Assembly: GCA_963786935.1 (NCBI GenBank)
Contig: CAWBAN010000004.1
Coordinates: 256,001 to 320,000, forward strand
Direction: 5' to 3'
DNA length: 64,000 nt
From: an uncultured bacterium
GTDB lineage: Bacteria; Krumholzibacteriota; Krumholzibacteriia; Krumholzibacteriales; Krumholzibacteriaceae
Shown here: in pieces, positions 9,233 through 42,391 of the stretch
Layout: every line of letters starts with the position of its first letter
How positions within the stretch are numbered: the first letter of the stretch is position 1
Program-made: the position numbers and the translations under genes
Notes under the pieces: model-generated
Database searches by the model: none
What the model was told of the DNA's origin: nothing
What the model saw: only the letters and a program-made list of their open reading frames with translations

Positions 9233-9239
9233 CGGCGCG

Positions 9240-11295: not shown

Positions 11296-11327
11296 GGGCC
11301 GTCATCGTCGAAGGGAACCTGTTCTCA

Positions 11328-13187: not shown

Positions 13188-13219
13188 AGAAGGAAGCATA
13201 AACGGACCTGACGCGGGAG

Positions 13220-15319: not shown

Positions 15320-15350
15320 CGTTTCCCTGGAGCGATCACAAAGCTGAAAT

Positions 15351-18611: not shown

Positions 18612-18616
18612 GAACG

Positions 18617-19828: not shown

Positions 19829-19886
19829 AGGCCCGCGAATTCGGGGATGAAACATCGGCCGGCCGGGATCGGAGGAAGGTAATCGC

Positions 19887-22940: not shown

Positions 22941-22966
22941 AGGCATCATTTAACAAGGAGGCTTTG

Positions 22967-23407
22967 ATGGCAAAATTCATACTCGGGGCGACCGAGCGGG
23001 TCAAGAAAGACGACTCGATTCCGGTGGAGCTCCTGCCGTCGAACAAGCTGCTCTACGTCGCCAAGCTCAATAACGATGAGGACGCCGATCCGGAGCCGGT
23101 ACGCTGCAACAACGTGAAGGAAGTGTTCGAAAAGTTCCGTCCGTCGTTCCACGCCGAGCTCGAATCGCCCGACGGGCAGTCGGTGGACGCCGAGTTCACG
23201 ATCAAGGCGATGAAGGATTTCACGCCGAAGGAGCTGATCGAGAACAACGACCAGCTTTCGACGACCTACTACAGCAAGGAGATCCTCGCCGATCTCGACA
23301 AGCAGCTCAAGAAGAACAATCCGCTCAAGAAGACCATTTCGGACAAGGAGAAGAAGGAAGCTCTTCTCAAAGCGGCGAAGTACTACATCGACCTCCTGTC
23401 GGAGTAA
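22967..23407 (+). CDS. tssB: T6SS sheath small subunit TssB, Bacteroidota (T6SS-iii) type
   Basis: Resembles Bacteroidota TssB (NKLLYVAKL...VKEVFEKFRP..ELESPDG..DF...KQLKKN); strong AAGGAGG RBS; precedes tssC. Confidence 0.82.
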   Translation: MAKFILGATERVKKDDSIPVELLPSNKLLYVAKLNNDEDADPEPVRCNNVKEVFEKFRPSFHAELESPDGQSVDAEFTIKAMKDFTPKELIENNDQLSTTYYSKEILADLDKQLKKNNPLKKTISDKEKKEALLKAAKYYIDLLSE

Positions 23408-24843: not shown

Positions 24844-24890
24844 ACGGACGTTTGGCGGCGCCCCGGGGCGCCCGAAAGGAGAAGCGGAAT

Positions 24891-25295
24891 ATGGCACGGA
24901 GACCTACCCTGGAGATCGATGGGGTCGTGTACAAGAACGTGTATTCGGTGTCCTATTCGCTCTATACGGCGAAGGACGAGACGGGCCGTCCCGCCGACCG
25001 CGCCCACGCGGGCACCATCAGGGTCGTGCGGGAATCGGATCAGACCTGCGACATCGCCCGCTGGGCCATGGATTCCTCGAAGCCGAACTGGAAGAGCGGG
25101 AAGGTGATGCTCAAGAGCCCGGACGACGCGACGATGAAGGAGCTGACCTGGGAGAACGGGTTCATCACGTTCTATTCGGAGAGCGTTCCGCATATCAAGA
25201 AAGTCCCGGACGATCAGGTGTACGAGGAGTTCGAGATATCCTGCCAGATTCTCAAGATCGCCGACGCGGAGATCGACAATCGCTGGCAGGAGTAG
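24891..25295 (+). CDS. tssD: T6SS tube protein TssD/Hcp, T6SS-iii type
   Basis: SYSLY..KDETGRP....AGTI...ES...IARWAM....KSGKV...MKELTWENGF...Y.E; located between tssC and vgrG. Confidence 0.88.
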   Translation: MARRPTLEIDGVVYKNVYSVSYSLYTAKDETGRPADRAHAGTIRVVRESDQTCDIARWAMDSSKPNWKSGKVMLKSPDDATMKELTWENGFITFYSESVPHIKKVPDDQVYEEFEISCQILKIADAEIDNRWQE

Positions 25296-25409: not shown

Positions 25410-27203
25410 ATGACTGATCGCGAAACAACGCTTCTCGAGACGCCCGCGGAATGCCTGATCCGCGTGAACAACAAGGAAATCAAGTTCAACATATCGCTCG
25501 TGCGGCTGGACCAGTTCGTCGACGCGCATCATCAGCTCGTGGTCCGCATCCAGCAGGTGGGGAAGAAGGAATCGGGGAAGGATTTCGACGATCCCGCCGA
25601 GTACGCGCAGTTTCTCGGAAACGGCATCAGCGTCAACATCAATCCCAAGGGGGGCGTGGTCGACCCGGCGCGCGCGCTCGAGTTCATCGGCGTGATCACC
25701 GACGTGCAGATCGACAACAGCATCGACGGGCTCAACACCGTGCTGATCGACGCCGCCTCGCCCACCATCGCCATGGACGGCGCCGTTCGCAACGCGCATT
25801 TCTACGACAAGACCGCGAGCGAGATCGTCGGCTCCATCCTCGGCAAGTACCCGATCACGGTGGGCGCGATCGAATCGACGAAGGGGACGTACAAGTTCGA
25901 CACGCAGTACCGCGAAACCGATTACGACTACGTCATGCGCCTCGCCGCCGGCGCCGGCGTGTTCGCGTGGTATTCCGGGAGGGACTTCAACCTCGGGCCG
26001 GCCAAGGGGGACAAGACCGTCGAGCTGAAATGGCGCGAGGATCTCGGGGCCTTCAGGCTGGGGCTCGGCACCGCTCCGGTCGAGTTCAAGGCCGACGTAT
26101 ACAACTACGAGCAGAAGAAAACCTACTCGCAGGACAGCAAATCCATCTCCCAGGATGCCGCGCTCTCGAACCTCTCGAAGACCTCGCCGGACGCCTCGCG
26201 GAAGATCTACAAGGATTCGGGATTCTCGCCGGCGCCGAAAACCGTGCAGGACGCGCAGACGCTCGACGCGACGCTCAAGAACGAGCGGCGCAAGGCGATG
26301 GGATCGATGATCAGGTGCACGGGGCAATCGATCGTCCCCGAGGTCCGCGTGGGGAACTGCGTCCGGATCACGGGGATGGACAAGCTCGACGGGCAGTATT
26401 GGGTGATCGCCGTCCGGCACGTCTTCGACGAGAGCGGGAAATACCACAACACGTTCGTGTGCACGCCGCTCGATATCGCGTATCCGGGGGTGAAGGAGGC
26501 GCGCGCCGATCTCGCCTCCGGCGAGGTTCGGCAGGAGCAAATGGCCCCCGTCGCTCCGCCGAAGCGGGAGCCCCCGATCGGGCTTCACGTCGCGCGCGTC
26601 ATCGACCTGAAGGATCCCGAGAAGCTCGGCCGGATCAAGATCAGCTATCCGTGGCTCGACGCCGAGCAGACCGCGTGGGTGCGGATGGCGGTGCCGCACG
26701 CGGGAAAGGACCGCGGATGGTACTCGCTGCCCGAGGTCGACGACGAGGTGCTCGTCGGGTTCGAGCACGGGAACACCGATCATCCGGTCGTCCTCGGATG
26801 CCTCTACAACAAGGAGAACGCCCCGATGCAGGAGGCGATCTCCGCCGATAACGACGTCAAGATGTTCATGACGCGGAGCGGCAACAAGATCGTCCTGAAC
26901 GACAAGAGCGGCGCCGAGCAGATCGTCATCTCGCAGAAGGACGGAAAGAATCAGATCGTGTTGGATATATCGGGGCCGTCGATCGCGATCACGACGGACG
27001 GGGACGTCTCCATCAAGGGGAAGAAGAACGTCACCATCGAAGCCGATCAGGGGATCAGCCTGAAGGCGACGTCCGACGTGAAGATCGAGGGCGCCAACGT
27101 CACGATCAAGGCGAACGCGAATCTCACGGTCGAAGGGACCAACGCCGACGTCAAGGGAAACGCCATGGTCAACGTCAAGGGCGGCGTGATTAACCTCAAC
27201 TAG
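25410..27203 (+). CDS. vgrG: VgrG/TssI spike protein
   Basis: QYRETDYDYVMRLA; OB fold DPEKLGRIKISYPW...WVRMAVPHAGKDRGWYSLPEVDDEVLVGFEHG; beta-helix ending GGVINLN. Confidence 0.95.
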   Translation: MTDRETTLLETPAECLIRVNNKEIKFNISLVRLDQFVDAHHQLVVRIQQVGKKESGKDFDDPAEYAQFLGNGISVNINPKGGVVDPARALEFIGVITDVQIDNSIDGLNTVLIDAASPTIAMDGAVRNAHFYDKTASEIVGSILGKYPITVGAIESTKGTYKFDTQYRETDYDYVMRLAAGAGVFAWYSGRDFNLGPAKGDKTVELKWREDLGAFRLGLGTAPVEFKADVYNYEQKKTYSQDSKSISQDAALSNLSKTSPDASRKIYKDSGFSPAPKTVQDAQTLDATLKNERRKAMGSMIRCTGQSIVPEVRVGNCVRITGMDKLDGQYWVIAVRHVFDESGKYHNTFVCTPLDIAYPGVKEARADLASGEVRQEQMAPVAPPKREPPIGLHVARVIDLKDPEKLGRIKISYPWLDAEQTAWVRMAVPHAGKDRGWYSLPEVDDEVLVGFEHGNTDHPVVLGCLYNKENAPMQEAISADNDVKMFMTRSGNKIVLNDKSGAEQIVISQKDGKNQIVLDISGPSIAITTDGDVSIKGKKNVTIEADQGISLKATSDVKIEGANVTIKANANLTVEGTNADVKGNAMVNVKGGVINLN

Positions 27204-27211
27204 GGATAACG

Positions 27212-27586
27212 ATGGAATACCTGTCGCTTCCGTTCGCGCTGCGCAAAGGATATCTCAAGAAAACGGGCATTCAGAATTCGATTTCCACTTCGATCGCGCT
27301 CATTCTGAGCACGCGGCGGGGCTCCCTGCCGTTCGATCCCGAATACGGATGCGACCTCTGGGAGCGGGAATATTCGGATCTCTTCATGGTCAACAAATCC
27401 GACGTGCAGGGCGCGGTCCGCACGGCGATCACGAAGAACGAGCCCCGGCTGTACAACGTTTCGGTGTCGCTCGTGAATATCGAGACCGGTCCGAACCATC
27501 CCCTCGGCCTCGCGATCAAGGTGATCGGCAATTTCAAGGAAGACAGGGAAGAGAAACGGTTCGAGGAAACGTTCAACGTAGGTTGA
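27212..27586 (+). CDS. tssE: TssE baseplate protein (gp25/GPW-like)
   Basis: YLSLPF...SIALILSTRRGSLPFDPEYGCDLWE...ITKNEPRL. Confidence 0.88.
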   Translation: MEYLSLPFALRKGYLKKTGIQNSISTSIALILSTRRGSLPFDPEYGCDLWEREYSDLFMVNKSDVQGAVRTAITKNEPRLYNVSVSLVNIETGPNHPLGLAIKVIGNFKEDREEKRFEETFNVG

Positions 27587-27587
27587 T

Positions 27588-29255
27588 ATGGACGGCGAAA
27601 AGTTCAAGACGGCCGAGGAAATCTTCCGGGACATGCACCGCGAGCTGCGCTCCTGGAACGCCGAGATTCCCGAATCCGCCGAGCGGCTGGATCCGATTCT
27701 GCGGATCATGCTGCAGCTGTACGCGGGCCAGCTCGCCTCGATCGACCGGAAGATAACGGACACCTGGACGCACGCGTCCAACGCCCTGATCCGGTCGCTT
27801 TATCCCGAGAGCATGCGCTGGCCGGTACCCGCGTTTACGGTGATTCAGGCGGAGCCCTCCGATCCGGTCATTCACGTGGACCCCCAGTGCCGATTCTTCT
27901 ACAAGGAAGAGCGGGAAGGGGGACGGACCTTTTTCTTCTCGACGCTTCGAACCGAGAAGCTCCTGAGCGCGAAGCTGCGCAATCTCTACTACGTCGCGGG
28001 CGACGAAATCCGCGACATTTCCCCCGCTTCCGGGGAAGGGACGCGGGTGGCCGACCGGATAAGATCCGCCGTGCCCGCCGGCGGCGCGGCCGCCGTCTAC
28101 CTGGCGATCGAGCACGGCGGCCCGGCGGAGGATTTCGAGAACGCGCTGCTCTTCCTGCGGGGGAGCGCCGAGGCGCTCAAGCAGCTGCGGTGGTCGCGGT
28201 GGCTCCCGTGCGTCGACGGCCGGTTCTCCGAGGAAAGCGGATTCTGCCCGGGGCTCGCCGGCGCCATCGACGAGATGCTCGCGACCGGCGGCGCGGCCCT
28301 CGACTGGGGAGGCCTCAGGAGGAGCAGCGACATATTCAGGCCCCTCGAGAACAACCTCGTGATGATGCCGCGCGGATTCGTCACGCCGTGGCGGCGCGGG
28401 ACGCCCGACGCCGCGTTCATGAAGGCCCTCGGCGAGGCGGGCGCGGCGCTCCCCGAGTCGCCGGAAACGCTGTTCTGGATCCGCGCGCAGCTGCCGTCGC
28501 GCGGGGACCGGGCCGCGTTCCAGGCGCCGTTCCGGGCGGATTTCGACTGCTTCATCGCCGTCAACCGGCACGAGCAGACGCTGTTCAAGCACACGGGAGG
28601 CAACCGGCTCATCGAGATCGAGATCCCCGAGAATCCGGACAACGTTCTCGAGATCATCTCGGTCATGGATTCGAGCGGAAAAACCTACATTCCGCAGCAC
28701 GAAGCGCTCACGTCGGACGAGAGCAGGTTCTACAACATGATCGAGCAGGGGGGGCGCCTCTCGCTCTGGTTCGATTTCTCGTCGACCATCGAGCTCCCGC
28801 CCGACGCGATCACGGTCAACTACTCGGTGACGGCGGGGACGCTCGCCAACGGCATCTCCGCCGGCAAGATCACCGAGCTGTACCAGAGTCATCCCGGCGT
28901 CGCCTCGCTGCGGAACATCGTCCCCGTCGCCGGCGCCGTGCCGGCGAAGAACGAGCGGCAGATCGTCGCCGAGGTCTCGGCGCGCCTGCGCGGGCGCGAT
29001 CGCGCGATGTCGTTCGACCAGCTGATCGGCTGGGTGCGGACGTTCGACGGGCGGATCGCCGAGGCGAGCTGCGAAAAGGGCGTCATGAAGACGGACGGCG
29101 GCGTCAGGAAATGCGTGGTGGTGCGGGCGTTTGTCAAGGCGAAGGAATTCTATTCGGACGACGAGATCGAGCTCCTGCGCGTCCGTCTCGAATCGTTTCT
29201 CAAGGCGCGCGCGTCGATCAACAGCCAGTTCAAGGTGGAGATACTGAAATCGTGA
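27588..29255 (+). CDS. tssF: TssF baseplate wedge subunit
   Basis: N-terminal LDPILRIMLQ...LYPE...PVPAFTVIQAEP; C-terminal LRGRDRA; synteny E-F-G-K. Confidence 0.8.
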   Translation: MDGEKFKTAEEIFRDMHRELRSWNAEIPESAERLDPILRIMLQLYAGQLASIDRKITDTWTHASNALIRSLYPESMRWPVPAFTVIQAEPSDPVIHVDPQCRFFYKEEREGGRTFFFSTLRTEKLLSAKLRNLYYVAGDEIRDISPASGEGTRVADRIRSAVPAGGAAAVYLAIEHGGPAEDFENALLFLRGSAEALKQLRWSRWLPCVDGRFSEESGFCPGLAGAIDEMLATGGAALDWGGLRRSSDIFRPLENNLVMMPRGFVTPWRRGTPDAAFMKALGEAGAALPESPETLFWIRAQLPSRGDRAAFQAPFRADFDCFIAVNRHEQTLFKHTGGNRLIEIEIPENPDNVLEIISVMDSSGKTYIPQHEALTSDESRFYNMIEQGGRLSLWFDFSSTIELPPDAITVNYSVTAGTLANGISAGKITELYQSHPGVASLRNIVPVAGAVPAKNERQIVAEVSARLRGRDRAMSFDQLIGWVRTFDGRIAEASCEKGVMKTDGGVRKCVVVRAFVKAKEFYSDDEIELLRVRLESFLKARASINSQFKVEILKS

Positions 29256-30156
29256 TGAGCGGCGCGGAACGGATAATGCCCGATTTCACCGGCCGTCGGT
29301 ACCGGTTCCACTACCTGACGGCCATCAACCTCCTCGACGGAATGGGCGTGCCCCTCGTCGATATCCGCCTGCGGGCGGAAGGGGAGTACGAGAATTACCG
29401 CGGGGAGATCCGCTCGCAGGATCCCCGCCCGGAACGCCGATCCCGCCGGGAACGATCGTCACGCTCCACGTGGGATGCTTCAGCGCGGTCGATTTCTTCC
29501 CGTACCAGTTCTTTTACGGGCTCCAGGGGATCCGCGAGGGGGGCGACGCGTGGGAGACGGACGCGCGGTCGATCCTGGCGCCGTTCGACGCCGCGACGAT
29601 CCGCTACGCCGCCGCCATGCGGATGCAGGCGCTCCGCTACGATTTCGGCGTCGCGGACGCCGGCCACCGCGGGCGCTTCATGGAGCTGTTCGAATACCGG
29701 CCGGGGGAGGGGATCCGGGACGCCCGGCAGACGGCGTATCTCGCGGCGATCCTGCCGTCGCTCCACCTGTGGGGCGGGAATCCCGAGGCGGTGACGGTTG
29801 TATTGAAGAGGCTCTTCGGATATGATGTGCGGCTGAAGGAAAACGCGAAGACCGAGACGCCGATCCCCGACGAGCTCCGGTACCGGCTCGGATCGAAGGG
29901 GGCGCGGCTCGGATTCGATACGGTGATCGGCGCCTCGTTCGAGGAGCGCGACAGCGGATATGTCGTGGAGTTCGTCGGCGTGCCTCCCGGGAAGATCCGC
30001 GATCTGCTGCCCGGGGGACGCACGCGACGCGGCGCGGAGGCGTTCCTCGATTACTGCATGCCGGGCGATCTGGACCGCTCGATCGCCGTCACGGTCGGGA
30101 AGCGGGAGGCGCGGGAGAGCGCGCAACGGTATCTCGGGCTTTCGACGTACCTGTGA
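29255..30156 (+). pseudogene. tssG: TssG baseplate subunit with an N-terminal PASTA-like domain, split by a 1-nt frameshift near 29423-29430 (real or sequencing error)
   Basis: The frame from ATG 29255 reads ...GEIRSQDP, and the sequence continues in the 29470 frame as PGTPIPPGTIVTLHVG...DFFPYQFF...ILPSLHLWGGN...RLGFDTVIG...FLDYCMP. One extra base in GATCCCCGCCC joins the two frames. Confidence 0.75.
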
Positions 30157-30199: not shown

Positions 30200-31651
30200 A
30201 TGGATGGATTCAAGCTGCAATCGGTGAACTGGCGCGACGGAATGCTCCTGAGCATGGGGCACCTGCGCGCCCAGGAAAGCTACCTCGAAGAGCTCGTCCG
30301 CTGGCATGCCTTCGACGAAGGGGACCGGTACGGCCTCGTGCGGAAGGATCCGGCGCAGCCGCCGCTGCGGCTGAGCGCGACGGTGAGCGGGAACAGACTC
30401 CGGGTCGAGGTGAGCCGCTGCCAGGCGCTCCTCCCCTGCGGGATGGCGGTGGAGTTCGGCGGATCGACAAGCGAGGGTGGGGTGCTCAAGGCCGAAATGG
30501 ATGCTCCGGCGACCCGCGTCCCCGTGTTCCTCGGCGTCAATCCCGGGGAGAAGCGGCAGGTGGGGAACCCCGATCCGTCGGAAGAGGTGCCCCGGATTCC
30601 GTACGAGATACCGGCGTTCCGGATCGCCCTCGGCGAGCCGCCGAACCTTCCCGAGTCGATGTATCTCCCGATCGCCGTGCTCGCCGTGAGCGGTTCCGAT
30701 GTGGCCCCGGCGGCCGACTACTTCCCCCCCTGCATGAGCGTCAACGCCGACGAGCGGCTCTCCTCGATGGCGATCGATCACCGGAACCGCCTCGAGAACC
30801 TCCTCAAGCTCTCCATCAACGCCTATATCGCCGCCTCCTCGGACAAGGGGATCGAAGGCGCGTCGACGAAGCTCCAGAGCGCCTTCCGTGAGACGTCGCA
30901 CGATCTCGTGTATCATATGGCCGCGCATCTCGACGATTTCGTCGTCGGACGCGGCGCACCGCACCCGGCCGTGTACATGCTGCAGTTCAAGAAGCTGTTC
31001 CGCGTCGTCTCGGCGCTCCTTCACCTGCATCCGGGGCTCAAGGATTTCCTGAACGAGAAATTCTTCACGAAGGAGGGGGGCGCCGATATCGGCTCCTGGC
31101 TCTCGGCGATCGATTCCTTCCTCCTCTCCGCGTACGATCACCGGGACATCGCCGCTCAGATGCGCGCCGTCGATCGTATCCTCGGAACGATGCGCTCGCT
31201 CATGGCCTTCCTCTCGAAGACGAGTTCCGATCAGCTCGGCGAGCAGGCGGTGGCCACCGAGACGATCATGTACCGCGGGAAGACCTACCGGAACAGCGCG
31301 CTCGGCGCGAGCAAGCTCGAGGAGGTGGGCGAGCTGAACTTCCTCGTCATGAAGCTCGCCGAGCCGGGAGCGGTGAAGGACGCGGTGACCCTGATCAACA
31401 AAGATCTCTTCTCGGACGGCCAGTGGCGGAACATGCAGGTCCGCCTCGGCGTGAACGAGGCGCGCGGGCTCGGCGAGACCGACCCCGTCGAGGTCGACGT
31501 CACGAGCTACAGCAACAAGGTCGTGCTCCATCCGATGGACATGATGTCGTCGTCGTCGGTCAAGCAGGTGACCCTCATCTTCCGCGGCCTCCCCGATTCG
31601 AAGAAGCTGGCCGCGCTCGGCAAGACGGATCTCATTCTTTATATTTCGTGA
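30200..31651 (+). CDS. tssK: TssK baseplate-to-membrane-complex connector
   Basis: VNWRDGMLLSMGHL, RYGL, CQALLPCG, GNPDPSEEVPRIPY and YFPPCMSV. Confidence 0.85.
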   Translation: MDGFKLQSVNWRDGMLLSMGHLRAQESYLEELVRWHAFDEGDRYGLVRKDPAQPPLRLSATVSGNRLRVEVSRCQALLPCGMAVEFGGSTSEGGVLKAEMDAPATRVPVFLGVNPGEKRQVGNPDPSEEVPRIPYEIPAFRIALGEPPNLPESMYLPIAVLAVSGSDVAPAADYFPPCMSVNADERLSSMAIDHRNRLENLLKLSINAYIAASSDKGIEGASTKLQSAFRETSHDLVYHMAAHLDDFVVGRGAPHPAVYMLQFKKLFRVVSALLHLHPGLKDFLNEKFFTKEGGADIGSWLSAIDSFLLSAYDHRDIAAQMRAVDRILGTMRSLMAFLSKTSSDQLGEQAVATETIMYRGKTYRNSALGASKLEEVGELNFLVMKLAEPGAVKDAVTLINKDLFSDGQWRNMQVRLGVNEARGLGETDPVEVDVTSYSNKVVLHPMDMMSSSSVKQVTLIFRGLPDSKKLAALGKTDLILYIS

Positions 31652-31666: not shown

Positions 31667-32596
31667 ATGGGTGAGAGCATAACGTCATATATCGAGGATC
31701 TGTTCAGGTACCTCAATGCCTACGAGAGCGATTACGGATCCTTCCAGGCCGATGGATTCTTCCAGACGTACAACGGCATCGGCGCCGTGTTCCAGGCGCT
31801 CCGGGAGCAGCGCGACAAGGCGGTCGAGGTCGACCGCGTCTTCCTCGAGAAGATCAAGCAGCGGCCGCTCACGAGCTCCGATCTGCGGCAGCTGACCATC
31901 CAGGTCATCGTCTCGTTCTTCGAATCGGTCGCCGACACGGACGGCCGCTCGGGCAGCTCCTATATCTACTGCCGCGAGCTCAGGACCGTTCGGCAGGACG
32001 TCCCGTACTTCGAGACGGTTCTCGTGCCGCTCCTCGCCCGCGAGGGGAGCCTGAACGGCAATTTCGAGCTGAATCGTTTCTTCCTGCAGGAGATCGGGCG
32101 CTACATCAGGAAGTTCAGCAGGAGCTTCAGCGCCGACGTCAATTTCGAGGACTTCAAGGGAATGCCGGTGCATCAGAAGCTGCTGACGCTCTCGCTCCGG
32201 CGCTCCGAGCTCGGCGAAGACATCATCAACGACCGGGATTCGCTCGAGTTTCATATGCGCAACGTGGGCGTTTTCGAGAAGCTGCGGCAGGAGAGCCCGC
32301 TCGCGGAGCGCTATATCAAGGAGTGGAAGTACCTTGCCCGCGGGCCCGGTTTCTGGGACCGCGTGGGGCAGTTTTTCGGCCTCGTCGGAAGCAAACTCAA
32401 GGGCTCGTCGAGCTCCAACTACGTGAGCCTGTCGCTCCGGCAGCGTTATTCCGCGTATCTGTTCTACGGGCTGCTGATCGTCGTGTTCGTGTTTCTCGCC
32501 GTGTTCATCCCGCTGCAATGGAACAAGTACACGGAGCGGAGACTCGAGCGGTTCAAGGCCCATGTCGAAGAGACCGAACGGGCCATGGGCTCATAG
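31667..32596 (+). CDS. Hypothetical inner-membrane protein with TssL-like topology (helical cytoplasmic domain, single C-terminal TM)
   Basis: TM YLFYGLLIVVFVFLAVFIPLQW about 25 aa from the C-terminus; sits right after tssK, where tssL lies in T6SS-i. Confidence 0.6.
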   Translation: MGESITSYIEDLFRYLNAYESDYGSFQADGFFQTYNGIGAVFQALREQRDKAVEVDRVFLEKIKQRPLTSSDLRQLTIQVIVSFFESVADTDGRSGSSYIYCRELRTVRQDVPYFETVLVPLLAREGSLNGNFELNRFFLQEIGRYIRKFSRSFSADVNFEDFKGMPVHQKLLTLSLRRSELGEDIINDRDSLEFHMRNVGVFEKLRQESPLAERYIKEWKYLARGPGFWDRVGQFFGLVGSKLKGSSSSNYVSLSLRQRYSAYLFYGLLIVVFVFLAVFIPLQWNKYTERRLERFKAHVEETERAMGS

Positions 32597-32611: not shown

Positions 32612-34822
32612 ATGAAGATAGCCAAGATATTCAAGCTCGGGCAGAAGGGCGCCAAGCGGGCCAAGAAGATGAAGGGAGGCGCCGCCCCGGCCGCCGCCTG
32701 GCCGGAGGGGACGAGGGTCGGCGTCTTCGGGCACGAGAACTCGGGGAAGACGGTGTTCTTCACCGCGCTCTACACGCAGAGCAAGACCACCGCGAATTTC
32801 CACGTGTCGGTGCGCGACAACGCGACGGCCAACGAGTTCTTCAGGAACGACATGGCCATCAAGGGGGTCGACGTCGACAGCGGCGGCACGGGAACGATCG
32901 CGGCCAAATCCGTTCCGAAGCGGTTCCCCGACCGGACCGTGAAGGATCTCGTGGTCCAGTTCACGGCCATTCTCGACGGGAGCGTCAAGATCCCGGTGGT
33001 CACCTACGATTACAACGGCCGGGCCGCTTCGATCTCCGATCGCTCGGACGAGGCGGAGAAGATCCGGTCCTTCATGGCGGACGCCGACGGGCTGCTCTTC
33101 TTCTTCGATCCGAAGGTCCTCGGCGCGGATCCCGAGGTCCAGGCGCGGGTCTCGTCGTTCGTCAACGTGCTCGAGCTTATCGTGTCGCTCAAATCGCGTC
33201 TCCCCATCCCCGTGGGGCTCGTGATCACCAAGGCCGATTCGCTTCCCGGCTTCACCGGCGAGGACAAGACGATCCTGATCCGGTCGAAGGACGAGCAGGT
33301 GATCGCCGACGACTACGAGACGTTCCTCGAGAAGGTGCTCGGCTTCGACAGCCTCGCCGACGACCGGGAGTGGGCCGCGTCGGTTCGGACCATCCTCGTG
33401 AAGCTCAGGGAGTTCATCCGCGTCGTCGTGGGGCGGACGCTCGACTTCCAGATCTTCTTCGTGTCGAGCACGGGGAACAAGCCGGAGAAAATCGGCGCCG
33501 AGGTCGGCCGGTCGCTCTACGCGCCGCCCGACAAGGTCAATCCGTGCGGCGTCACGGAGCCGTTCTACTGGATGCTCAAGTCGATCGTCCGGAGCCGGCG
33601 CCTGACCGCGTTCCGGAGGGTCGCGGGATTCGTCGTCGCGATCGCGGCGATCTGGATCGCGCTGTACTCGCTCCCGTTCATGATTCACTTCGGCGGCCTC
33701 CTGCGGTCCCCGGCGCGGGTGGAGAGCAAGGCGCTGAAGGAGGCCGGCGGCAATCACCGGCTCCTGTCGCCGGCGCAGAACGACGACATCTTCAACGCGT
33801 ACCGGCGGTACGGCGGCGCCTGGCTCGTCAAGCGGATGTTCCCCGAGTACCAGGTGCAGGCCCAGCACATGAAGGATATCTACGGCGGCATCGGCACGCC
33901 GACGGCCGGCGGGAGGCTGGACGCCATTCTCATCCAGCTCGCGGGTGTGATCGCCGACGAGAAATCGCGCCCCGTCTGGGACCGCGGCGACAAGAAGGTG
34001 AAGCTCGACGACGCCACCAAGCGGCTGCTCGACGAGCTCAAGGAGATGCACTCCGGCGACGAGAACGAGCCGTCGTTCAAGCGCTCCGAGCGGGCGCTGT
34101 TCCTGTGGGGTCTTTTCGAGCAGCACCTGCAGAGCTCGCAGGATCCGGCGATCCTGAACTCGATCTGGGAGCAGGTCGCCGCGAACGCGAAGAATCCGGA
34201 TTACAACGACGCGGAAGCGCGGTACGGGGAGGCGCTCCAGCGGCTCGCCAACAAGGCGGCTTCGGAGGAAGCTCCTTCCCTGCAGGAAACCAATACGATC
34301 CTCGATGCGTACGCGGAGCTCAAGGGGCGGGTCAACGCGAAGGACGCCGATCCCGCCTTCGTTCTCGGCGAGGCGGCGGACGAGCTTCGGAATATCGCGT
34401 CCAAGCTGACGAGGGGCGTCCACGCCGAGCAGCTCTCCGCGATCTCGCAGTTCGTCGCCGCCGTGGAGGCGCTGAAGAAGGAACAGCAGTACGTCTGCAT
34501 CGTGAAGAACATCGCCGGGCTCGATCACGTTCACATCGAAGTGACGAAACCGGGCGGAAGCCCCTCCTGGTCGGAGCAGACGCAGTGCTTCAAGGGGGAC
34601 GAAGTCGATCTGCGGTGGAAGCCGGGGGACGAAATCTACATCGCGTACGACGAGGAAAAGCACACGTGCAAATGGGGAAATCAGCCGAGCGACATGCAGG
34701 TGTTCGACGACGAATACGCGCTGTACCAGCTCGACGGAAAGGTGAGCTTCTCCAATATCGGAAAGACGGTGACGCTGGGCTTCAAGGGCGGTCTGCGGGA
34801 GAAGCTGCCGAAGCTGAAATGA
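32612..34822 (+). CDS. Membrane-anchored P-loop GTPase-like protein with TssM/IcmF-like architecture
   Basis: G1 GHENSGKT, G3 DYNG, G4 TKAD, G5-like VSSTG; single TM VAGFVVAIAAIWIALYSLPFMI; periplasmic helical region, then a beta-rich C-terminus. Confidence 0.68.
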   Translation: MKIAKIFKLGQKGAKRAKKMKGGAAPAAAWPEGTRVGVFGHENSGKTVFFTALYTQSKTTANFHVSVRDNATANEFFRNDMAIKGVDVDSGGTGTIAAKSVPKRFPDRTVKDLVVQFTAILDGSVKIPVVTYDYNGRAASISDRSDEAEKIRSFMADADGLLFFFDPKVLGADPEVQARVSSFVNVLELIVSLKSRLPIPVGLVITKADSLPGFTGEDKTILIRSKDEQVIADDYETFLEKVLGFDSLADDREWAASVRTILVKLREFIRVVVGRTLDFQIFFVSSTGNKPEKIGAEVGRSLYAPPDKVNPCGVTEPFYWMLKSIVRSRRLTAFRRVAGFVVAIAAIWIALYSLPFMIHFGGLLRSPARVESKALKEAGGNHRLLSPAQNDDIFNAYRRYGGAWLVKRMFPEYQVQAQHMKDIYGGIGTPTAGGRLDAILIQLAGVIADEKSRPVWDRGDKKVKLDDATKRLLDELKEMHSGDENEPSFKRSERALFLWGLFEQHLQSSQDPAILNSIWEQVAANAKNPDYNDAEARYGEALQRLANKAASEEAPSLQETNTILDAYAELKGRVNAKDADPAFVLGEAADELRNIASKLTRGVHAEQLSAISQFVAAVEALKKEQQYVCIVKNIAGLDHVHIEVTKPGGSPSWSEQTQCFKGDEVDLRWKPGDEIYIAYDEEKHTCKWGNQPSDMQVFDDEYALYQLDGKVSFSNIGKTVTLGFKGGLREKLPKLK

Positions 34823-34851: not shown

Positions 34852-35361
34852 ATGAAAAGAGCGACGCTGTCCGTGCTCGCCGTCCTCGTCCTGGCCGCGC
34901 TGCCCGCGATCGCCTTCGCGGCGAAGGTGGCCGTGCCCGAGGGCACGCCGGTCAAGGTCATGTTCGACGCCGGGAAGAAGATCTCCTCGGGCGAGCGCAA
35001 GGCGGGAGACACGCTGTCGATTCGTCTGGTTGAAGACGTCAAGATCGGCGGAAAGACGATCGTCGGGGCCGGCGCGAAGGGAATCGCGAGGGTCAAGGAA
35101 GTGACGCCCTCTACGAAGCCCGGGAAGCCGGGCACCATAGAAGTCTCGTTCATTTCGCTGACGGCGGGCGGCGAGTTCCGGTCGAAGGACGGAAGCGACA
35201 TCAAGCTCGCCGGAGCGGCGAAGGACGTAGGCGGCTCGCACAAGATCCTTTCCTGGCTCTTCATCTTCGGATTGTTCATCAAGGGGGGGCAGGGGGATAT
35301 CGATGCGGCGCGGATCTACCAGGCTACGGTCGGAGAAACGATCGTTCTCGAGAGCAGATAG
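34852..35361 (+). CDS. Exported protein with VirB10/TrbI-like beta domain and hydrophobic insert
   Basis: Signal peptide MKRATLSVLAVLVLAALPAIAFA; VPEGTPVKV..ISS...KAGD...LVEDVKIGGKTIVGAGA...G.IEVSFISL..DGSDIKL; hydrophobic ILSWLFIFGLFI. Confidence 0.6.
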   Translation: MKRATLSVLAVLVLAALPAIAFAAKVAVPEGTPVKVMFDAGKKISSGERKAGDTLSIRLVEDVKIGGKTIVGAGAKGIARVKEVTPSTKPGKPGTIEVSFISLTAGGEFRSKDGSDIKLAGAAKDVGGSHKILSWLFIFGLFIKGGQGDIDAARIYQATVGETIVLESR

Positions 35362-35409: not shown

Positions 35410-36951
35410 TCACCGGCAGCCGGTGAAGAGATAGTGGTAGGCCGCTCCCCAGGTCCACGCGATATCGTACAGCTCGACCTCGTCGAGGCCGCCCGCCAAA
35501 TACGCGTGGGCCAAGGCGTTATCCTTTCCCATGTACAGCGCGCCGATCGTGTTCGGGGCCGCCTCGCGGCCGTCCCCGGCGATCCACGATCCCGTCATCT
35601 GGTAGATGTAGCATCCGGCCCCGACGACCGTCACCGGTGATGAAGGCTCGCCGAAGCGGTACGAGAAGAGCACGTGGAACCAGCCCGTCGACCGGGCGTC
35701 CGGAATGTCGACTCGATACGTGTGATATTTCGAGCTTCCATATCTGAAGAGCAGCGACTTGAAGCCGTCGGTGCCCGAGGCGTCCTGGAGGAGCAGCTGG
35801 TAGTTGATGGCCCCGTTCGCGTTTCGCTTGCAGATCAGCGACGAGAGCGGATTCGGGGCGGTGGCGGCAGGCACATAGATCCACATCGACATCGTGATCT
35901 CGTTCGAAAGATCGAGGAGCGCGTCGTCGGGAACCTCGACGAAATCGCTGGTCCCGTTGAAGAGGCGCGCCTGGCCGGCGGGCCCGTAGGGCTCGTTCGT
36001 CGTTCCCGTCGCCGTGCCGTCGAGGCCGTTGCCCGACTGGTCGTAGATGGTCGCGAAGCTGGCGCCGGTGCTCATGTTCCAGTAGGCGACGGAGCGGGCC
36101 CAGGGATCGTAGAGCAGCACGACGGAATTCTCGGCGCGGATCCCCGCCGTGGGCAGGGCGGCGCCGACCTTGTTGGTCATCGAGAGCACCGCCGGGGTGA
36201 ACGTGGCGGTTTCGAACGGCGAGATTTCGTATATGTACGTCTGGTAAGACACGGTCGCGATCTCCACGTAGCCGTCCGCGTCGACGATCCGGTCGGTGAC
36301 GTTCCGGAGCGACACGTCGATGGACACGGTGTAGGACGCATCCACCGAGATCGCGGCTCCCGCCACCTTGGCGAGCTGGGGATCGATGACGACGTTGCCC
36401 ACGCTGACGTCGAGGTAGGTCCCGCCCACCAAGCGATGGCTCGCGAGGCTGACGCGAATGCCGGCGATATCGGGGAGCTTGTAGACGCGGATCTTCATCG
36501 CGAGAACGTCCCCCTGGAGCGTCTCGAGATACGCCGGCGAAACCTTGATCATCGGGACCTGCGGGATGAGCGCGATGTCGAGCGCGAGCTCCGTCCCTCC
36601 CGCGACGTCGGCCGTTGTTTCTCCGGAGAAGAGCAGCACATCCGCCCCGTCGAAGGCGTCGATATGGAACAGCCGGTCCGGACCGGCGGGCACGACGACG
36701 CTCGCGACGAGCGTGCCGCCCGAGAGCGCGAGGTCGGCGACGATCGGCGCGATGATGCCCGGCCCCGTCACGGTGAGCGTGAAGGAGGACGCCTGCGCGT
36801 TTCCCCAGGACGTTCCGGGGGCCGCGTGTATCCGCACATCGATGCTCAGCTCATCGGCCGAGGTTATCTTGTCCGAGCACGATGAGACGGTCAGGATCGC
36901 GCACAGGAGCGCGAGCGCCGCGAAGCCGCGAAAGGTACCGGATGCGAACAT
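35410..36951 (-). CDS. Lipoprotein with C-terminal LamG/concanavalin-like domain
   Basis: Lipobox VSSC; VAYWNM...DQSGNGLDG...FNGTSDFVEV...ITMSMWI...GGLDEVELY. Confidence 0.82.
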   Translation of the reverse strand: MFASGTFRGFAALALLCAILTVSSCSDKITSADELSIDVRIHAAPGTSWGNAQASSFTLTVTGPGIIAPIVADLALSGGTLVASVVVPAGPDRLFHIDAFDGADVLLFSGETTADVAGGTELALDIALIPQVPMIKVSPAYLETLQGDVLAMKIRVYKLPDIAGIRVSLASHRLVGGTYLDVSVGNVVIDPQLAKVAGAAISVDASYTVSIDVSLRNVTDRIVDADGYVEIATVSYQTYIYEISPFETATFTPAVLSMTNKVGAALPTAGIRAENSVVLLYDPWARSVAYWNMSTGASFATIYDQSGNGLDGTATGTTNEPYGPAGQARLFNGTSDFVEVPDDALLDLSNEITMSMWIYVPAATAPNPLSSLICKRNANGAINYQLLLQDASGTDGFKSLLFRYGSSKYHTYRVDIPDARSTGWFHVLFSYRFGEPSSPVTVVGAGCYIYQMTGSWIAGDGREAAPNTIGALYMGKDNALAHAYLAGGLDEVELYDIAWTWGAAYHYLFTGCR

Positions 36952-36963
36952 CGTTCACTCCCC

Positions 36964-38085
36964 TCAATACGAAACGCGCAATCCGCCCGACGCCTGGAGA
37001 CCGCCGATGCCGGTGTCCCCGCCGTCGGTCGAACCGGTATAGTACATAACACCGAGATCGAGGCCGAGATTCCGGGAAAGCGTTCTCCCGAGATCGACGC
37101 CGAGATTCAGCAGCGACGATCTCCCGAGCGCTTCCTCGCTCTCCATGATCTGCCGCGTGCCGATCAGAGCGCCGATCGTCCAGTCGCTCCCGAGCGGGCG
37201 CGCGACGCGCAGGAACACGTCGAACTCGTCGCCGTACTGCTTCAGCTCGCTCTCGATCGCGCCCGTCGCCGTGCTGTAGCGCTCGTTGCGGCCGCGCAGT
37301 ATCATCCGAAGCCCCAGCTCGGCGCCGTACGTCTTTCCGGTCAGCGCGGCCCCGAGCCGCGCGCTGAACTGCGGCGACTGCCGGTAGATGTCCGCGCCGT
37401 CGAGCGCGTCCGTTCCGAAGACGGCGAAGCCGAAATCGCCGGTGTACCTGATCCTGCCGGAGGACGCGGCGGCCGTGGCGTTCACCGAAAGCGCGTCGCC
37501 GGGATCGTATTCGCCGACGCCGTCGTACGGCTTGTAGGCGCCGAGGAAATCGTATACCGCGCTCAGGCCGCACGTGAAGGGCCCGAGCTCGGTTGCGCCC
37601 CCCGCCTGCAGGTTGAATCCGAAACCCGCCCCGTAGCTCCGGAGCGGCAGCGACAGGTAATCGCGCGAGAGATACTCGACGATGCGCCGCTCGCCGTCGG
37701 GATCGAGCTCTCGTTTCCCGGTCGGCAGGTTGAGCCCGGCGGAGAGCAGCACGCGGTCCTTCGCGAAGGAGCGCGCGAGCTGGAGCCGCAGGTCGCCGAG
37801 CCCCGACATGCTTTCGTCGACGCTCCCGGCCTCGAGCGCGTTGGAGGCGGTCAGGATCTGGTATCTGGCTTCGAAGTTGTCGCGGATGGGGACGAATCCC
37901 GAGATGCCGAGGCTCGTCTGCGCGAGATCTTCGTCCGGGCCGGACGCGGGATCGAGGGACCATGCGCCGTAGTTGAGCTTCACGGCGAACGAGCCCGGCT
38001 GATTGAAGACGATCTGGCCGTTCGCCGGAGCGGCGAGGAGCGACGCGAGGGCCAGTATCGTCGCGGCGATCGTCCTAATTCGCAT
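36964..38085 (-). CDS. Outer-membrane beta-barrel protein
   Basis: Signal peptide; GLGDLRL...GLNLPTG motif; amphipathic strands; terminal LRVSY. Confidence 0.75.
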   Translation of the reverse strand: MRIRTIAATILALASLLAAPANGQIVFNQPGSFAVKLNYGAWSLDPASGPDEDLAQTSLGISGFVPIRDNFEARYQILTASNALEAGSVDESMSGLGDLRLQLARSFAKDRVLLSAGLNLPTGKRELDPDGERRIVEYLSRDYLSLPLRSYGAGFGFNLQAGGATELGPFTCGLSAVYDFLGAYKPYDGVGEYDPGDALSVNATAAASSGRIRYTGDFGFAVFGTDALDGADIYRQSPQFSARLGAALTGKTYGAELGLRMILRGRNERYSTATGAIESELKQYGDEFDVFLRVARPLGSDWTIGALIGTRQIMESEEALGRSSLLNLGVDLGRTLSRNLGLDLGVMYYTGSTDGGDTGIGGLQASGGLRVSY

Positions 38086-39421
38086 CGAGGTGCCCCCTGA
38101 CGATGATGGTCCCGTAGCCGTTCCCGATGGGACCGCCCCCCGGCGGGGCCATCGGATACGAGCCGTAATACCAGTACAGATCCGTGTTCATGATGAAGCC
38201 GCCGTTCACGAGGTTCGCGGCCTGCGCCGCGTCCATGTCCGTTCCGGCGCCCTCGGGGCTGATCGACGAGGCGACTTCCCGCTCGAACGATTTGGCGCGT
38301 CCGGACGGCGCCCCCTTCAGCTCGCCGCGGTAGGAGGAGGTGAGCTCCATCTTGTCGGCGAGCCGCGAGGCCTCGACGAAGGCGGGATCGAGCGCGCCCG
38401 CCTTCCGGAACGAGCCCGCCGCGTCGTCGAACAGCCCGCGTTTCTCCTGCGAGAGCCCCTCGCTGAAGGCCATGAACGCGAGGAACGATTCGGTGGGAAC
38501 CTCCTCGATCGCGTCCCGCTCGGCCTTGTCGATCGCGATCCCGAGGGTGTCGAGGAGCGCGAACACGAACTTCTTCTCGACGTCGAAGAATCGGTCGAGG
38601 TTCCCCTCGTTCGACTGCGTGCCGCTCGCCGCGCCGTCGACCGTGTTGACGAGCCGCCCGTCGATCCTGAATCCCGATTCGCCGGCCCCGGTCACCGTGC
38701 CGAGGACGATGGTGCGGGTGCCGAGCAGCTTCCCCATGCGCGGGGCGATGCGGCGGTCGGCGTAGCTCGACTCGCCGAGCTTGAGCTCGTCGAGGATCAC
38801 GTTGATCTTGATCCGCTCGAGGACCCGGAGCTCCTTGACCTTGGAGAGATCGATGGCGACGAGCTCGGCGAGTCCGAGCGCTATCGGCTGATAGTCCGGC
38901 GGGAGGTAGGAGCCGTTGAAGTTGACGACTGCGATGCTGTTCTCCGGCGCCGACGCGACGGAGAGCGTGTCCTCGCCGCGCACCGCTTCGCGGGCGTTCG
39001 CGGCGAGCTGCGCGTCGATCAGCACGCCCAGCCGGTCCCGGATCAGCTTCCGCGTCCGGTCGTCCCCCTCCAAATTGGCCGCCGCGGCGTACACGCGTAT
39101 CGCCTTGTCGGTCTCGCCGGTCCTCTCGAATATGAGACCGAGGTAGAAATTCGAGAGCGCGTTGGGGCTGATCCTGTTGGACGCGGCGAATGCTTCCTCG
39201 GCTTTCCCGAGCGAATCGCTCCGGTACCACGCCATGCCGAGCTCCCGCCACGCCCGGTAGTCGTCCGGTTTCTCCTGCACGGCCCGGTACAGGCGGTCGC
39301 GCGCCTCCTCGTAGTTCCCCTGATCCGAAGCGGCCACGCCCTCCCGATAGTAGCTCCCCCCGCAGCCCGCGAGGAGCAGCAGGGGAACGAGAATCGCTGC
39401 CGCACTATATCTCCTCGACAT
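38075..39421 (-). CDS. TPR plus CsgG/TolB_N-like lipoprotein
   Basis: Lipobox LAGC; TPRs; SIAVVNF...GLAELVAIDLS...LRVLER...GKLLGTRTIVLG...RLVNTVDG. Confidence 0.82.
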   Translation of the reverse strand: MSRRYSAAAILVPLLLLAGCGGSYYREGVAASDQGNYEEARDRLYRAVQEKPDDYRAWRELGMAWYRSDSLGKAEEAFAASNRISPNALSNFYLGLIFERTGETDKAIRVYAAAANLEGDDRTRKLIRDRLGVLIDAQLAANAREAVRGEDTLSVASAPENSIAVVNFNGSYLPPDYQPIALGLAELVAIDLSKVKELRVLERIKINVILDELKLGESSYADRRIAPRMGKLLGTRTIVLGTVTGAGESGFRIDGRLVNTVDGAASGTQSNEGNLDRFFDVEKKFVFALLDTLGIAIDKAERDAIEEVPTESFLAFMAFSEGLSQEKRGLFDDAAGSFRKAGALDPAFVEASRLADKMELTSSYRGELKGAPSGRAKSFEREVASSISPEGAGTDMDAAQAANLVNGGFIMNTDLYWYYGSYPMAPPGGGPIGNGYGTIIVRGHLDAN

Positions 39422-39448
39422 CGCACGCTCCTTGTCTTCGAGGCGCTC

Positions 39449-40498
39449 TCAGCTCACGAGCGGCTTGTAGATTTCCATTTTCTTCTTCGCTTCGGTGAAG
39501 GAGTTGTCCTTCTCGTACGCCTTCCGGAAATAGTCGTACGCCTTCTCGTACTCGTATTCGTCCATGTACTTGAGCCCGAGGGAATAGAGCCGCGCGGCGT
39601 CCATGTCCTCGGTCGCCGATTCCTCGATCGCCGCGCCCGCCTCTTTCGAAATCGTGAGGTTGAGCTTGCCGGCGACGTCCTTCACGAGCGCCTTCTCCAT
39701 CTCGACGAAGTTCGGTTTGCCCTCGCGGTCGGCCGTCGTCACGATCTCCGAGGTCTCGACGTCGACGACGCGGACGACCATCCGGGCGCTCTTGCCGTCG
39801 AGCTGCGTGATGCTGCCGAACACCATCAGCTGCGCGCCGAGCATCTTGCCCACCTTCACCGCCGTGGCGGGATCGATCTTCTTGTCCTCGGCCAGCTTGA
39901 TCTCCCGGAGCAGGTAGTCGAGCTTGTCCCGCTCGACGATCCTCACGCCGCCGAACGCGGAGAAATCGTATTCGAAGAAATCGGCGAGCCCCTTGCTGAG
40001 GTCGCCGAGGCTCTCCTTATATTCGCCCACGGAGAAGTTGTCGAACTCCATGACGGCGATCGTCCGCGCGGCCGGCGCGGCGTCGTTCCGGCAGACGAGC
40101 ATGTCCTTGCTCTTCGATATCTCGTACCACTTGTCCCGCAGCTCGCTCGGCCACAGCTCGCGCGGGAAGTTCATGAGACAGTGCCCGATGCTCGAGATCT
40201 CCTGCAGATAGCCGAAGGCCTCGCGTTTGTATTTCTGCCCCTTCGCGTACGTGATGACGCTCTTGACTTCGAGGATGGCGACGCTGTCGCCGGCGGCCAG
40301 ATCCTTCCGCGAGAGCAGCTCGTCGGTGATGGCGAGCCCCGCGTCGAACTCGCCGTCGAGGTAGACGTTGACGGCCTCCGCGAGCCGCTCGGTGAGCGTG
40401 CCCTCGGGCGCCGCCGCGGCGGGGGCCGCCGTCAGCGACCGCAGGGGCGCGAGGAGCAGCAGCGCGAGCATGGCGAAAAACAGAACGATTCGCTTCAT
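39449..40498 (-). CDS. CsgG/HfaB-family exported protein with TPR
   Basis: Signal peptide; TIAVMEFDN...GLADFF...IVERDKLD.LL.EIKL....IDPATAVKVGKMLGAQLMVFGS...RVVDVETSEI. Confidence 0.85.
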   Translation of the reverse strand: MKRIVLFFAMLALLLLAPLRSLTAAPAAAAPEGTLTERLAEAVNVYLDGEFDAGLAITDELLSRKDLAAGDSVAILEVKSVITYAKGQKYKREAFGYLQEISSIGHCLMNFPRELWPSELRDKWYEISKSKDMLVCRNDAAPAARTIAVMEFDNFSVGEYKESLGDLSKGLADFFEYDFSAFGGVRIVERDKLDYLLREIKLAEDKKIDPATAVKVGKMLGAQLMVFGSITQLDGKSARMVVRVVDVETSEIVTTADREGKPNFVEMEKALVKDVAGKLNLTISKEAGAAIEESATEDMDAARLYSLGLKYMDEYEYEKAYDYFRKAYEKDNSFTEAKKKMEIYKPLVS

Positions 40499-40546
40499 GG
40501 CACATTCCTCCCGCTGGTGAATGAGATCGCTCTTCGGAACTCTATC

Positions 40547-41995
40547 CTATTCCTCGAACGCGTGCGAAACGATCTGCGTCCCGCCGCTCTCGAGGGTGAC
40601 GGACGTCGAATAGGAGCGCTCCGTCCCGTCCACGACGGCGACGATCCGCACGTCGTACCGGCCGGGCGGCCGCTCGAAGGTGAACGGCGTCGTCTCGTAC
40701 TGCCGCTCGCCGTTGATGTAGATCGCCGCGTTTCGAGGCCGCGACAGCACCTTGAGGAATCCGGGCGCGACCGCCGGCGGTTTGGACGTACGCGCGCCCC
40801 CGGTTGTTCCTGCGCCGGCGGCGGTTCCGGCGCCGGCGCCGGTCTTTTGGTCGCCGGCCGCGGCCGGTTTCCGCTCCTCGGTCGTGCCGGCCGGGGCGCC
40901 GGTTTCCCCCGTGCGCTCCTGTCGCGTCGTCGAATCGGCGCGGGAGGGAAGGGCGCTCTCGATCGACCGCTGCGTGTCCGTGACGGCCGTCCGGCTCGTC
41001 CCGGCGCCGCCGAGCGCCGGATCGGTCCCTTCGCCTCCTCCTCCCGACATCATCCTGATCCCGGCGATCGCGGCCGCCGCCACGACGACGACCCCCACGA
41101 CGGCGCCGGCGATCTTTCCCCGCGCGCCGCGTTTCGCGGGGCGCCTGGCGGCCGGCGCCGCGGGCGCGTTCGCGGGGGGAACATGCGTTCCGGAGAGCCG
41201 CGAGAGCTCCGATTTCATATCGGCGACGGAGGCGTATCGCTTCGGCGGATCCTTGTCCATCGCCTTCAGGATGATCCGGTCGAGCTCGCCGGGGATATCC
41301 TCGTTGAAACGCGATGGAGGCTCGGGATTCTCGAGGAGCTTCATGTCCCGCAGGATGAACTCGTTCTCCCCCGTGAACGGCGCCCGCCCCGCGAGCATCT
41401 TGTACATCATGGTGCCCACGGCGTAGATGTCGCATTTGGCGTAATCGATCCCTTCGCCCCCCGCGAACTGCTCGGGCGCCATGTACTCGGGCGTGCCGGC
41501 GGCGGTGCCGACGATCGTCATCTGGGGATCGGTCTTTCCCTTGGCGATGCCGAAGTCGATGATCTTGAGCTGCCCGTCCCGGTCGAACATGACGTTCCCG
41601 GGCTTGATGTCGCGATGATAGATCCCCTTGTCGTGCGCGAAGGCGAGCGCGGCGAGGAGACCGTCGACGATAGCGAGGGTCTCGTTCACCGCGAATTTTC
41701 CCTTCTCGGCGATCATCTCCTCGAGCGATTTCCCGTCGATGTACTCCATCGCGATGACGAGCTCGTCCTCGTGATTGAAGAAATGCCGGATGTGGCAGAT
41801 GTTCGGATTCCGCTCGAGAAGGGCGAGCTTGTCGGCCTCCTGCATGAAGCGCGCGGCGTGCCGCGGGTCGGAGAGAATCTTGAGAACGACCTTCAGATTC
41901 GGGACGTCCTTGTGCACCGCGAGGTAGACCTTGGCCATGCCTCCGGCGCCGATCTGCTTGAGGACCCGGTAATTCCCAATCTCGCGCTCTGCCAT
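40547..41995 (-). CDS. Membrane Ser/Thr kinase with C-terminal PEGA domain
   Basis: GAGGMAKVY, HRDIKPGN, DFGIAK and GTPEYMAPEQ; TM; PEGA-like GFLKVLSRPRNAAIYING...TTP...PGRYDVRI. Confidence 0.92.
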   Translation of the reverse strand: MAEREIGNYRVLKQIGAGGMAKVYLAVHKDVPNLKVVLKILSDPRHAARFMQEADKLALLERNPNICHIRHFFNHEDELVIAMEYIDGKSLEEMIAEKGKFAVNETLAIVDGLLAALAFAHDKGIYHRDIKPGNVMFDRDGQLKIIDFGIAKGKTDPQMTIVGTAAGTPEYMAPEQFAGGEGIDYAKCDIYAVGTMMYKMLAGRAPFTGENEFILRDMKLLENPEPPSRFNEDIPGELDRIILKAMDKDPPKRYASVADMKSELSRLSGTHVPPANAPAAPAARRPAKRGARGKIAGAVVGVVVVAAAAIAGIRMMSGGGGEGTDPALGGAGTSRTAVTDTQRSIESALPSRADSTTRQERTGETGAPAGTTEERKPAAAGDQKTGAGAGTAAGAGTTGGARTSKPPAVAPGFLKVLSRPRNAAIYINGERQYETTPFTFERPPGRYDVRIVAVVDGTERSYSTSVTLESGGTQIVSHAFEE

Positions 41996-42391
41996 GCGAA
42001 ACCGCTCCAATCCCGTATCTCGTGTAGCAAAATTCATTTAACCCGGGAGTGTCAACACAAAACTGCATGGCCGCCGCGCAGGCCCATGGTTCCCGAAGAG
42101 GTGCGTGCCCGGCGAACTTCGCTCCTTGATTCGCTTCGGGCGCGGGCTTCCCGGCGGAATGGACGGGGACGCTGACCGGCACGAATCCCGGCTTCATCGA
42201 CCGGGCGAACGGTCTCCTGCGCCCCGCCGCCGGAGCGATCGATATCGGCGCGTTCGAACGAGAGTATCGGCAGCCGGAGCTTCCATCGCATTCTCTCCCG
42301 AATGTCCGTAACTTTTCCGCTCAAAACGTCCAATATCTGCGGAGGAGGTGAATGCTGCATTTTCAAGAGCTTTAAGGAAAAGGAGGATGCC

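Follow-up and report, generated by a model that had tools for sequence, protein, structure and literature searches.

Gene content of the locus

The window is the whole stretch of DNA analysed here, 64,000 nt from a member of the Krumholzibacteriota, and all coordinates are positions within it with the strand in brackets. It contains a T6SS locus, the nearest named relatives of which are loci of Ca. Krumholzibacteria (identity 83-89% across the N-terminal part). The following features were assigned.

14261-20312 (+): PAAR protein, 1086-aa candidate effector, beta-propeller protein and DcrB-like protein
20421-22940 (+): ClpV/TssH-like AAA+ ATPase (profile match)
22964-23407 (+): TssB (profile match)
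23425-24843 (+): TssC of T6SS-iii type (PF17541, 233 bits)
24852-25295 (+): Hcp of T6SS-iii type (Pfam TssD PF17642, 73 bits)
25410-27203 (+): VgrG (profile match)
27212-27586 (+): TssE (gp25; profile match)
27588-29255 (+): TssF-like protein (weak Pfam and NCBIfam TssF matches; synteny)
29252-30156 (+): tssG in two frames (Pfam TssG on the 3' part)
30200-31651 (+): TssK-like baseplate adaptor, 483 aa (TIGR03353, E 1.8e-10, under the cut-off)
31667-32596 (+): X309, tail-anchored protein of 309 aa in the tssL slot
32612-34822 (+): membrane GTPase of 736 aa in the tssM slot (domains, motifs and fold model)
34852-35361 (+): X169, exported protein of 169 aa, 3' of the GTPase gene
35410-42037 (-): convergent cluster of a LamG lipoprotein, a 373-aa putative outer-membrane barrel, two CsgG-like/TPR proteins and a TM Ser/Thr kinase

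All T6SS genes from the PAAR gene through the TssK-like gene lie on the strand of the GTPase gene. The frameshift in tssG falls at about 29420-29460. Alignment with each of three intact relatives runs in two frames, and the gene is either affected by an assembly error or a pseudogene.

Architecture of the membrane GTPase

The GTPase starts with a basic helix, which is followed by a TRAFAC domain (residues about 31-332) and a single TM (about 336-360), while the periplasmic part is made of a helical stalk (365-621) and a beta domain (625-724). Motifs G1 to G5 are near-invariant across 112 homologues, and the claim of the sequence-only reading that 736 aa hold TRAFAC motifs, one TM, a helical stalk and a beta-rich end is confirmed. 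The cytoplasmic domain adopts a Ras-like fold in the predicted model and is the most conserved part of the protein (0.72 compared to 0.46 for the stalk). Foldseek and VIA searches with the whole model returned only GTPases; such searches are filled by the GTPase domain and are therefore uninformative on the periplasmic half. The gene is present in one copy in its own genome. One query of viral contigs returned no relatives, and plasmids gave weak matches only.

Occurrence and gene order

The GTPase is a constant component of a T6SS-iii-type system in the two uncultured phyla sampled. In counts that ignore kinship, so that related genomes are not independent, the GTPase is present in 16 of 151 genomes of its own phylum and TssC in all 16 of these (17 genomes have TssC, the additional one being a weak TssC without GTPase), and in the phylum sample of a Zixibacteria genome the GTPase and TssC are found in the same 62 of 121 genomes. 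The neighbourhoods compared came from 80 of the 116 loci in genomes, 80 of the 110 in metagenomes and parts of two distant genomes; the GTPase is present in 162 loci, 142 of core type and 20 distant. Among core loci with sufficient flank, X309 is located 5' of the GTPase in 122/123, TssK upstream in 107/108, TssC upstream in 76/77 and X169 3' of the GTPase in 109/112; in two of the three X169-negative loci, X169 is present behind a split ORF. The usual order is tssK, X309, GTPase, X169. The sole upstream exception is L067 (genome G155), where the GTPase, X169 and LamG genes are situated about 420 kb from those of TssC and X309 on one chromosome; an 'orphan' GTPase copy was ruled out in this case, the locus being split. 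Homologues thus lie inside T6SS loci and not, as the sequence-only reading had allowed for, mostly outside them, and its placing of a TRAFAC-fold GTPase in a T6SS-iii-like locus is borne out, the protein filling the tssM slot.

A clade with GTPases of 690 aa (distant loci L142, L162 and L166; genomes G218, G234 and G240) has no GAP1 gene and neither tssK nor X309 upstream. Lipoprotein genes are present 5' of its GTPase, with X169 on the opposite strand and PAAR 3' of it, and in G240 TssC is located 660 kb from the GTPase. L114 (G131:C28) is a different contractile locus with PAAR, ClpV-like, TssB, weak TssC, VgrG, TssE and TssF, and the genome carrying it has no match to this GTPase family. 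Loci L018 and L033 come from records titled Ignavibacterium and Deferrimicrobium that fall in the phylum sample of the Zixibacteria genome; such titles may be mislabels.

X309 and X169

X309 consists of an all-helical cytoplasmic domain and a C-terminal TM (residues 265-283), a topology like that of TssL. It has no sequence match to TssL/DotU, and its structural match to DotU (135/155 residues) is weak and at noise level.

The X169 ORF is hidden inside a longer frame and was absent from the earlier annotation. The protein has a signal peptide, no lipobox and a hydrophobic hairpin of 12-14 residues, and is a candidate outer-membrane component. None of 68 members matches TrbI directly, and direct HHalign against VirB10 with a three-sequence profile gave no match. 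The X169 profile does match proteins bearing weak TrbI matches (99.6% in HHalign to those), and these intermediates align with VirB10 of R388 and R46 at E 2e-4 over 87 columns. This two-step profile link to VirB10/TrbI (PF03743) covers the first 87 barrel columns and suggests that X169 is related, indirectly, to the VirB10/TrbI beta-barrel; the nearest named Atlas cluster is also TrbI (score 0.78), which we treat as a lead only. The hydrophobic hairpin sits at the position where the membrane-spanning helices of VirB10 start. In contrast to VirB10, X169 is a stand-alone exported protein without the inner-membrane anchor and linker, and its hairpin is much shorter.

Search for known membrane complexes

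A profile search of the window's own genome (96.5% complete) found no IcmF-related_N. DotU and TssJ profiles found none in five of five genomes, with positive E. coli controls, and a TssN search run without a positive control likewise found none in five of five. The absence of known membrane-complex genes from the genomes searched (for TssN, with that limit) would fit a tail without envelope anchoring, that is, a contractile system which is extracellular or loosely tethered and in which the three proteins serve release or localisation. We consider this very improbable, because ClpV-like and TssK-like genes are present together with T6SS-iii-type TssC and Hcp genes. Loci of eCIS are not known to carry ClpV or TssK.

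According to the sections of Bongiovanni et al. 2024 (PMC10781749) drawn on here, T6SS-iii of Bacteroidota uses a TssNQOPR membrane complex. The system in the window shares with it TssC and Hcp that match T6SS-iii profiles and the lack of TssJLM. However, a GTPase-centred trio follows tssK here, and TssN/O/P/Q/R profiles have no match among the locus ORFs scanned. A non-canonical anchor without TssJ, which co-opts new envelope proteins, has been reported for the Acinetobacter T6SS (Kandolo et al. 2023, PMC10564176). That complex keeps a recognisable TssM, whereas the Krumholzibacteriota system has none that is recognisable.

Comparison with TssM

The GTPase resembles TssM of T6SS-i in its slot after tssK and a tail-anchored gene, and in its succession of a cytoplasmic P-loop domain (DxxG, TKxD), TM, periplasmic helices and terminal beta domain. 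A (N/T)KxD motif and GTP hydrolysis have been described for TssM in the portions of Ma et al. 2012 (PMC3346141) cited here, and the P-loop domain that they describe, with Walker A, hhhhDxxG and (N/T)KxD before the TM, is present in the GTPase. The intact G4 motif had been proposed to set the protein apart from TssM. This is not supported: all of 120 canonical TssM (mostly from Rhizobiales) have TKxD, and 112 of them have TKAD; G4 cannot separate the two because TKxD is ordinary in TssM. The differences are found elsewhere. TssM is about 1160 aa long, with a periplasmic part of about 700 aa compared to about 375 aa in the GTPase, which also lacks the N-terminal TM pair and detectable periplasmic homology and belongs to a system without TssJ.

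Comparison with TssM/IcmF reference profiles (PF14331, PF06761, PF21070, PF06744 and TIGR03348) gave little. PF14331 (IcmF-related_N) scores 16 bits over 24 residues of the GTPase against a cut-off of 25, and the query has no NCBIfam match. Among 26 distant members, IcmF-related_N matches five and TIGR03348 only two (E 0.021 or worse). In the periplasmic part, IcmF_C matches none of 65 C-terminal domains of the family, and HHalign against a narrow TssM set gave E 0.49 and 0.21; a resemblance of the C-terminal domain to IcmF_C, seen by eye, is supported by neither HHalign nor Pfam. No TssM turned up when the PDB was searched by sequence with the protein itself, with the family profile or with the C-terminal profile. 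HHalign of the core family to TssM covers 47-56 columns round G4, while the distant members align at 93% (E 2.7e-7) over 130 columns from G4 to G5, with a reversed control at 0.2%. The GTPase therefore fails membership of the TssM family as judged by sequence, and its description as a 'minimal or ancestral TssM' is unsupported, the alignment being confined to G4-G5 with none in the periplasmic part.

The distant-member alignment is one argument that the GTPase might be a true but very divergent TssM orthologue, its periplasmic part shortened and altered so far as to be unrecognisable, X309 being TssL and the DO-GTPases (see below) being cousins or offshoots of TssM. The shared tssK-L-M slot, the same G1/G3/G4 grammar, including TKAD-L-x-G-F plus a long helical insert that separates G4 from G5, and the weak DotU match of X309 all point the same way. 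Against it stand the missing NCBIfam match, the two poor TIGR03348 matches, the complete lack of IcmF_C and of TssM chains in the PDB searches, the poor periplasmic alignments and the absence of the N-terminal TM pair. With the tree and gene context described next, we consider such an orthologue rather unlikely.

Comparison with DO-GTPases

DO-GTPases are defined, in the sections of Kaur et al. 2020 (PMC7159879) on which we rely, by a glutamate in Walker B and by GAP1 being encoded downstream. The same sections predict that DO-GTPase/GAP1 pairs act as sensing switches in GTPase-centric conflict systems, and record DO-GTPases with C-terminal TM and beta-sandwich fusions. The reference profiles for DO-GTPases and GAP1-N2 were PF19993 (DO-GTPase2), PF19975 and PF20013. 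The GTPase scores marginally on DO-GTPase2 (27.4 bits, cut-off 27), higher than on IcmF-related_N in contrast to TssM, and 25 of 26 distant members match this profile (E up to 0.01); four canonical TssM have no match to the DO-GTPase profiles. HHalign against seven DO-like proteins covers G1-G4 at 99%, a score biased because the set was chosen from weak matches to either the query or DO-GTPase2. TssM aligns to the same proteins at 96.7%, which leaves some room for true TssM orthology. So, on the basis of the HHalign and profile comparisons, the GTPase family, TssM and DO-GTPases share one GTPase subfamily, with the family nearer to the DO side.

Gene context is the strongest independent evidence for the link to DO-GTPases. 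Distant T6SS loci have the order tssK, X309, GTPase, GAP1-N2, X169; GAP1 is present in 9 of the 20, and all nine proteins encoded 3' of the GTPase there match GAP1-N2. In the Zixibacteria sample, a GAP1-like gene adjoins the GTPase gene in exactly 11 genomes, all of a 630-aa clade, and in none of 51 others (48 core and three 690-aa genomes). No GAP1 was found in genome G000, nor 3' of the GTPase in the 142 core loci. The Walker-B glutamate, which we read as the residue after DxxG, is replaced by R137 in the GTPase of the window, and in the core this position is E in 10/112 and K/R in 79/112. DYxGE occurs in 15/20 distant loci, including eight of the nine with GAP1 (one is unmatched), while three loci with X169 directly 3' of the GTPase have Q, K and Q at this position. 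An R or K after DxxG also resembles the DTAGR of TssM, in favour of the divergent orthologue.

In a quick tree of 72 rows, unrooted and with weak deep forks, the core forms one group (100) among the distant clades, and TssM is situated on a separate branch 2.56 long. This separation and the GAP1-N2 partners of distant clades both speak against a divergent TssM. Because the deep forks are weak and the tree is unrooted, we infer rather than observe that GAP1 was lost in the core.

Common to the GTPase and DO-GTPase systems is a TRAFAC domain that scores on DO-GTPase2; in distant T6SS clades, the Walker-B glutamate and a downstream GAP1-N2 gene are retained as well. However, it is embedded in a T6SS as a single copy without a zinc ribbon, and the core clade is without GAP1 and has mostly K/R for the glutamate. 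The GTPase therefore fails membership of the DO-GTPase systems on GAP1 and on the glutamate. The second suggestion of the sequence-only reading, a GTPase recruited independently, fits better than the first, given the DO-GTPase2 match and the GAP1-N2 partner in distant T6SS clades.

Two parallels involving GAP1 were rejected. Homology of GAP1-N to TagF, as in tssM-tagF, found no PDB match and E 0.65 in HHalign against one TagF, and paralogy of the long GAP1 C-terminus with the beta domain of the GTPase is unsupported (HHalign E 0.078). The T6SS loci L081 (3108-6134, -) and L083 (386-3430, -) encode GAP1-N2 proteins of about 1000 aa that have a TM and a long periplasmic part; in other clades GAP1-N2 proteins are soluble and 270-310 aa long. 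L113 (2918-5350, +; G140:C93) encodes a second DO-GTPase-like protein of 810 aa on a 9.9 kb contig in which no T6SS gene was found. L106 (103-4320), on a plasmid of the cyanobacterium Calothrix (NC_019728), has three consecutive DO-GTPase-like genes with no GAP1 match.

A possible envelope module

We lean, if only slightly, towards the explanation that the GTPase does the job of TssM, forming the scaffold in the inner membrane for an envelope module not described before, and that its GTPase domain probably derives from the DO-GTPase/GAP1 lineage. Its gene is flanked by tssK-X309 on one side and X169 on the other, and occurs together with the sheath gene. Gene order and topology suggest that the TssK baseplate is docked by the cytoplasmic domain together with tail-anchored X309, much as it is by TssM and TssL; this is proposed because the gene adjoining tssK encodes the membrane dock of TssK in both known systems, as covered in the sections of PMC10781749 used here. 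The helical stalk and beta domain would span the periplasm as far as X169. The VirB10-like barrel of X169 might oligomerise, its hydrophobic hairpin entering the outer membrane in place of TssJ, and so form or seed an outer-membrane opening. The invariance of G1-G5 hints that the complex changes from one assembly state to another as GTP is bound and hydrolysed. Older versions may use a GAP1-N2 partner, which the core clade would have lost together with most of the Walker-B glutamates. That the GTPase works like TssM is quite probable, since the scaffold and the divergent orthologue agree on its job.

The convergent cluster at 35410-42037 accompanies the T6SS in 43-49 of the 64 core loci that extend 7 kb or more downstream, and in L081 and L131 a barrel gene and a CsgG-like gene are located inside the T6SS cluster, between baseplate genes. 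It is conceivable that the channel is built from such genes and that the GTPase is a captured DO-GTPase/GAP1 sensor that licenses firing, in line with the sensing role predicted in the cited part of PMC7159879 and with the cytoplasmic domain being the best conserved. However, roughly one in four of those loci showed no such cluster within the flank retrieved, whereas GTPase, X309 and X169 are near-invariant. In addition, TssK requires a cytoplasmic dock, only the GTPase and X309 out of ten proteins scanned qualify as inner-membrane candidates other than kinases, and the core clade has no GAP1. A purely regulatory switch is improbable for these reasons.

The scaffold explanation can be extended to a third T6SS envelope complex, in which a domesticated DO-GTPase/GAP1 switch core, a free VirB10-type barrel pore and a Bacteroidota-type tail are combined, common in Zixibacteria and Krumholzibacteriota and representing a living link between DO-GTPases and TssM with GTP-gated firing. 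This fuller version is possible, though doubtful; if true, it makes T6SS firing GTP-gated.

Novelty and implications

The system is a real variant of T6SS architecture and is unpublished as far as the literature searched on T6SS, DO-GTPase, Zixibacteria and Krumholzibacteriota extends. The T6SS anchors described in the literature consulted are TssJLM and TssNQOPR, and a third, compact gene set is found here with a T6SS-iii-type tail, a combination present in roughly half of the Zixibacteria genomes sampled. The system bears on the question of how different envelope complexes came to serve as docks for a phage-like tail, and it connects the uncharacterised DO-GTPase/GAP1 pair with a concrete machine. 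It also offers a natural test of what nucleotide binding is for in TssM-like proteins, the motifs being near-invariant here and degenerate in some TssM (PMC9972734, in the passages cited). The genes for the GTPase, X309 and X169 are small enough for expression in E. coli and structure solution.

Other genes of the region

Upstream of the PAAR gene, at 8420-14245 (+), lie genes for a PP2C phosphatase, a TM Ser/Thr kinase and an SH3-plus-barrel protein, which may represent PpkA/PppA-like control. The genes 3' of PAAR, at 15351-19828 (+), encode the 1086-aa protein, with an HExxH motif and a weak OmpA match, followed by the beta-propeller protein, the two being a candidate effector and immunity pair. 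A relative of the 1086-aa protein is located 3' of X169 in locus L182.
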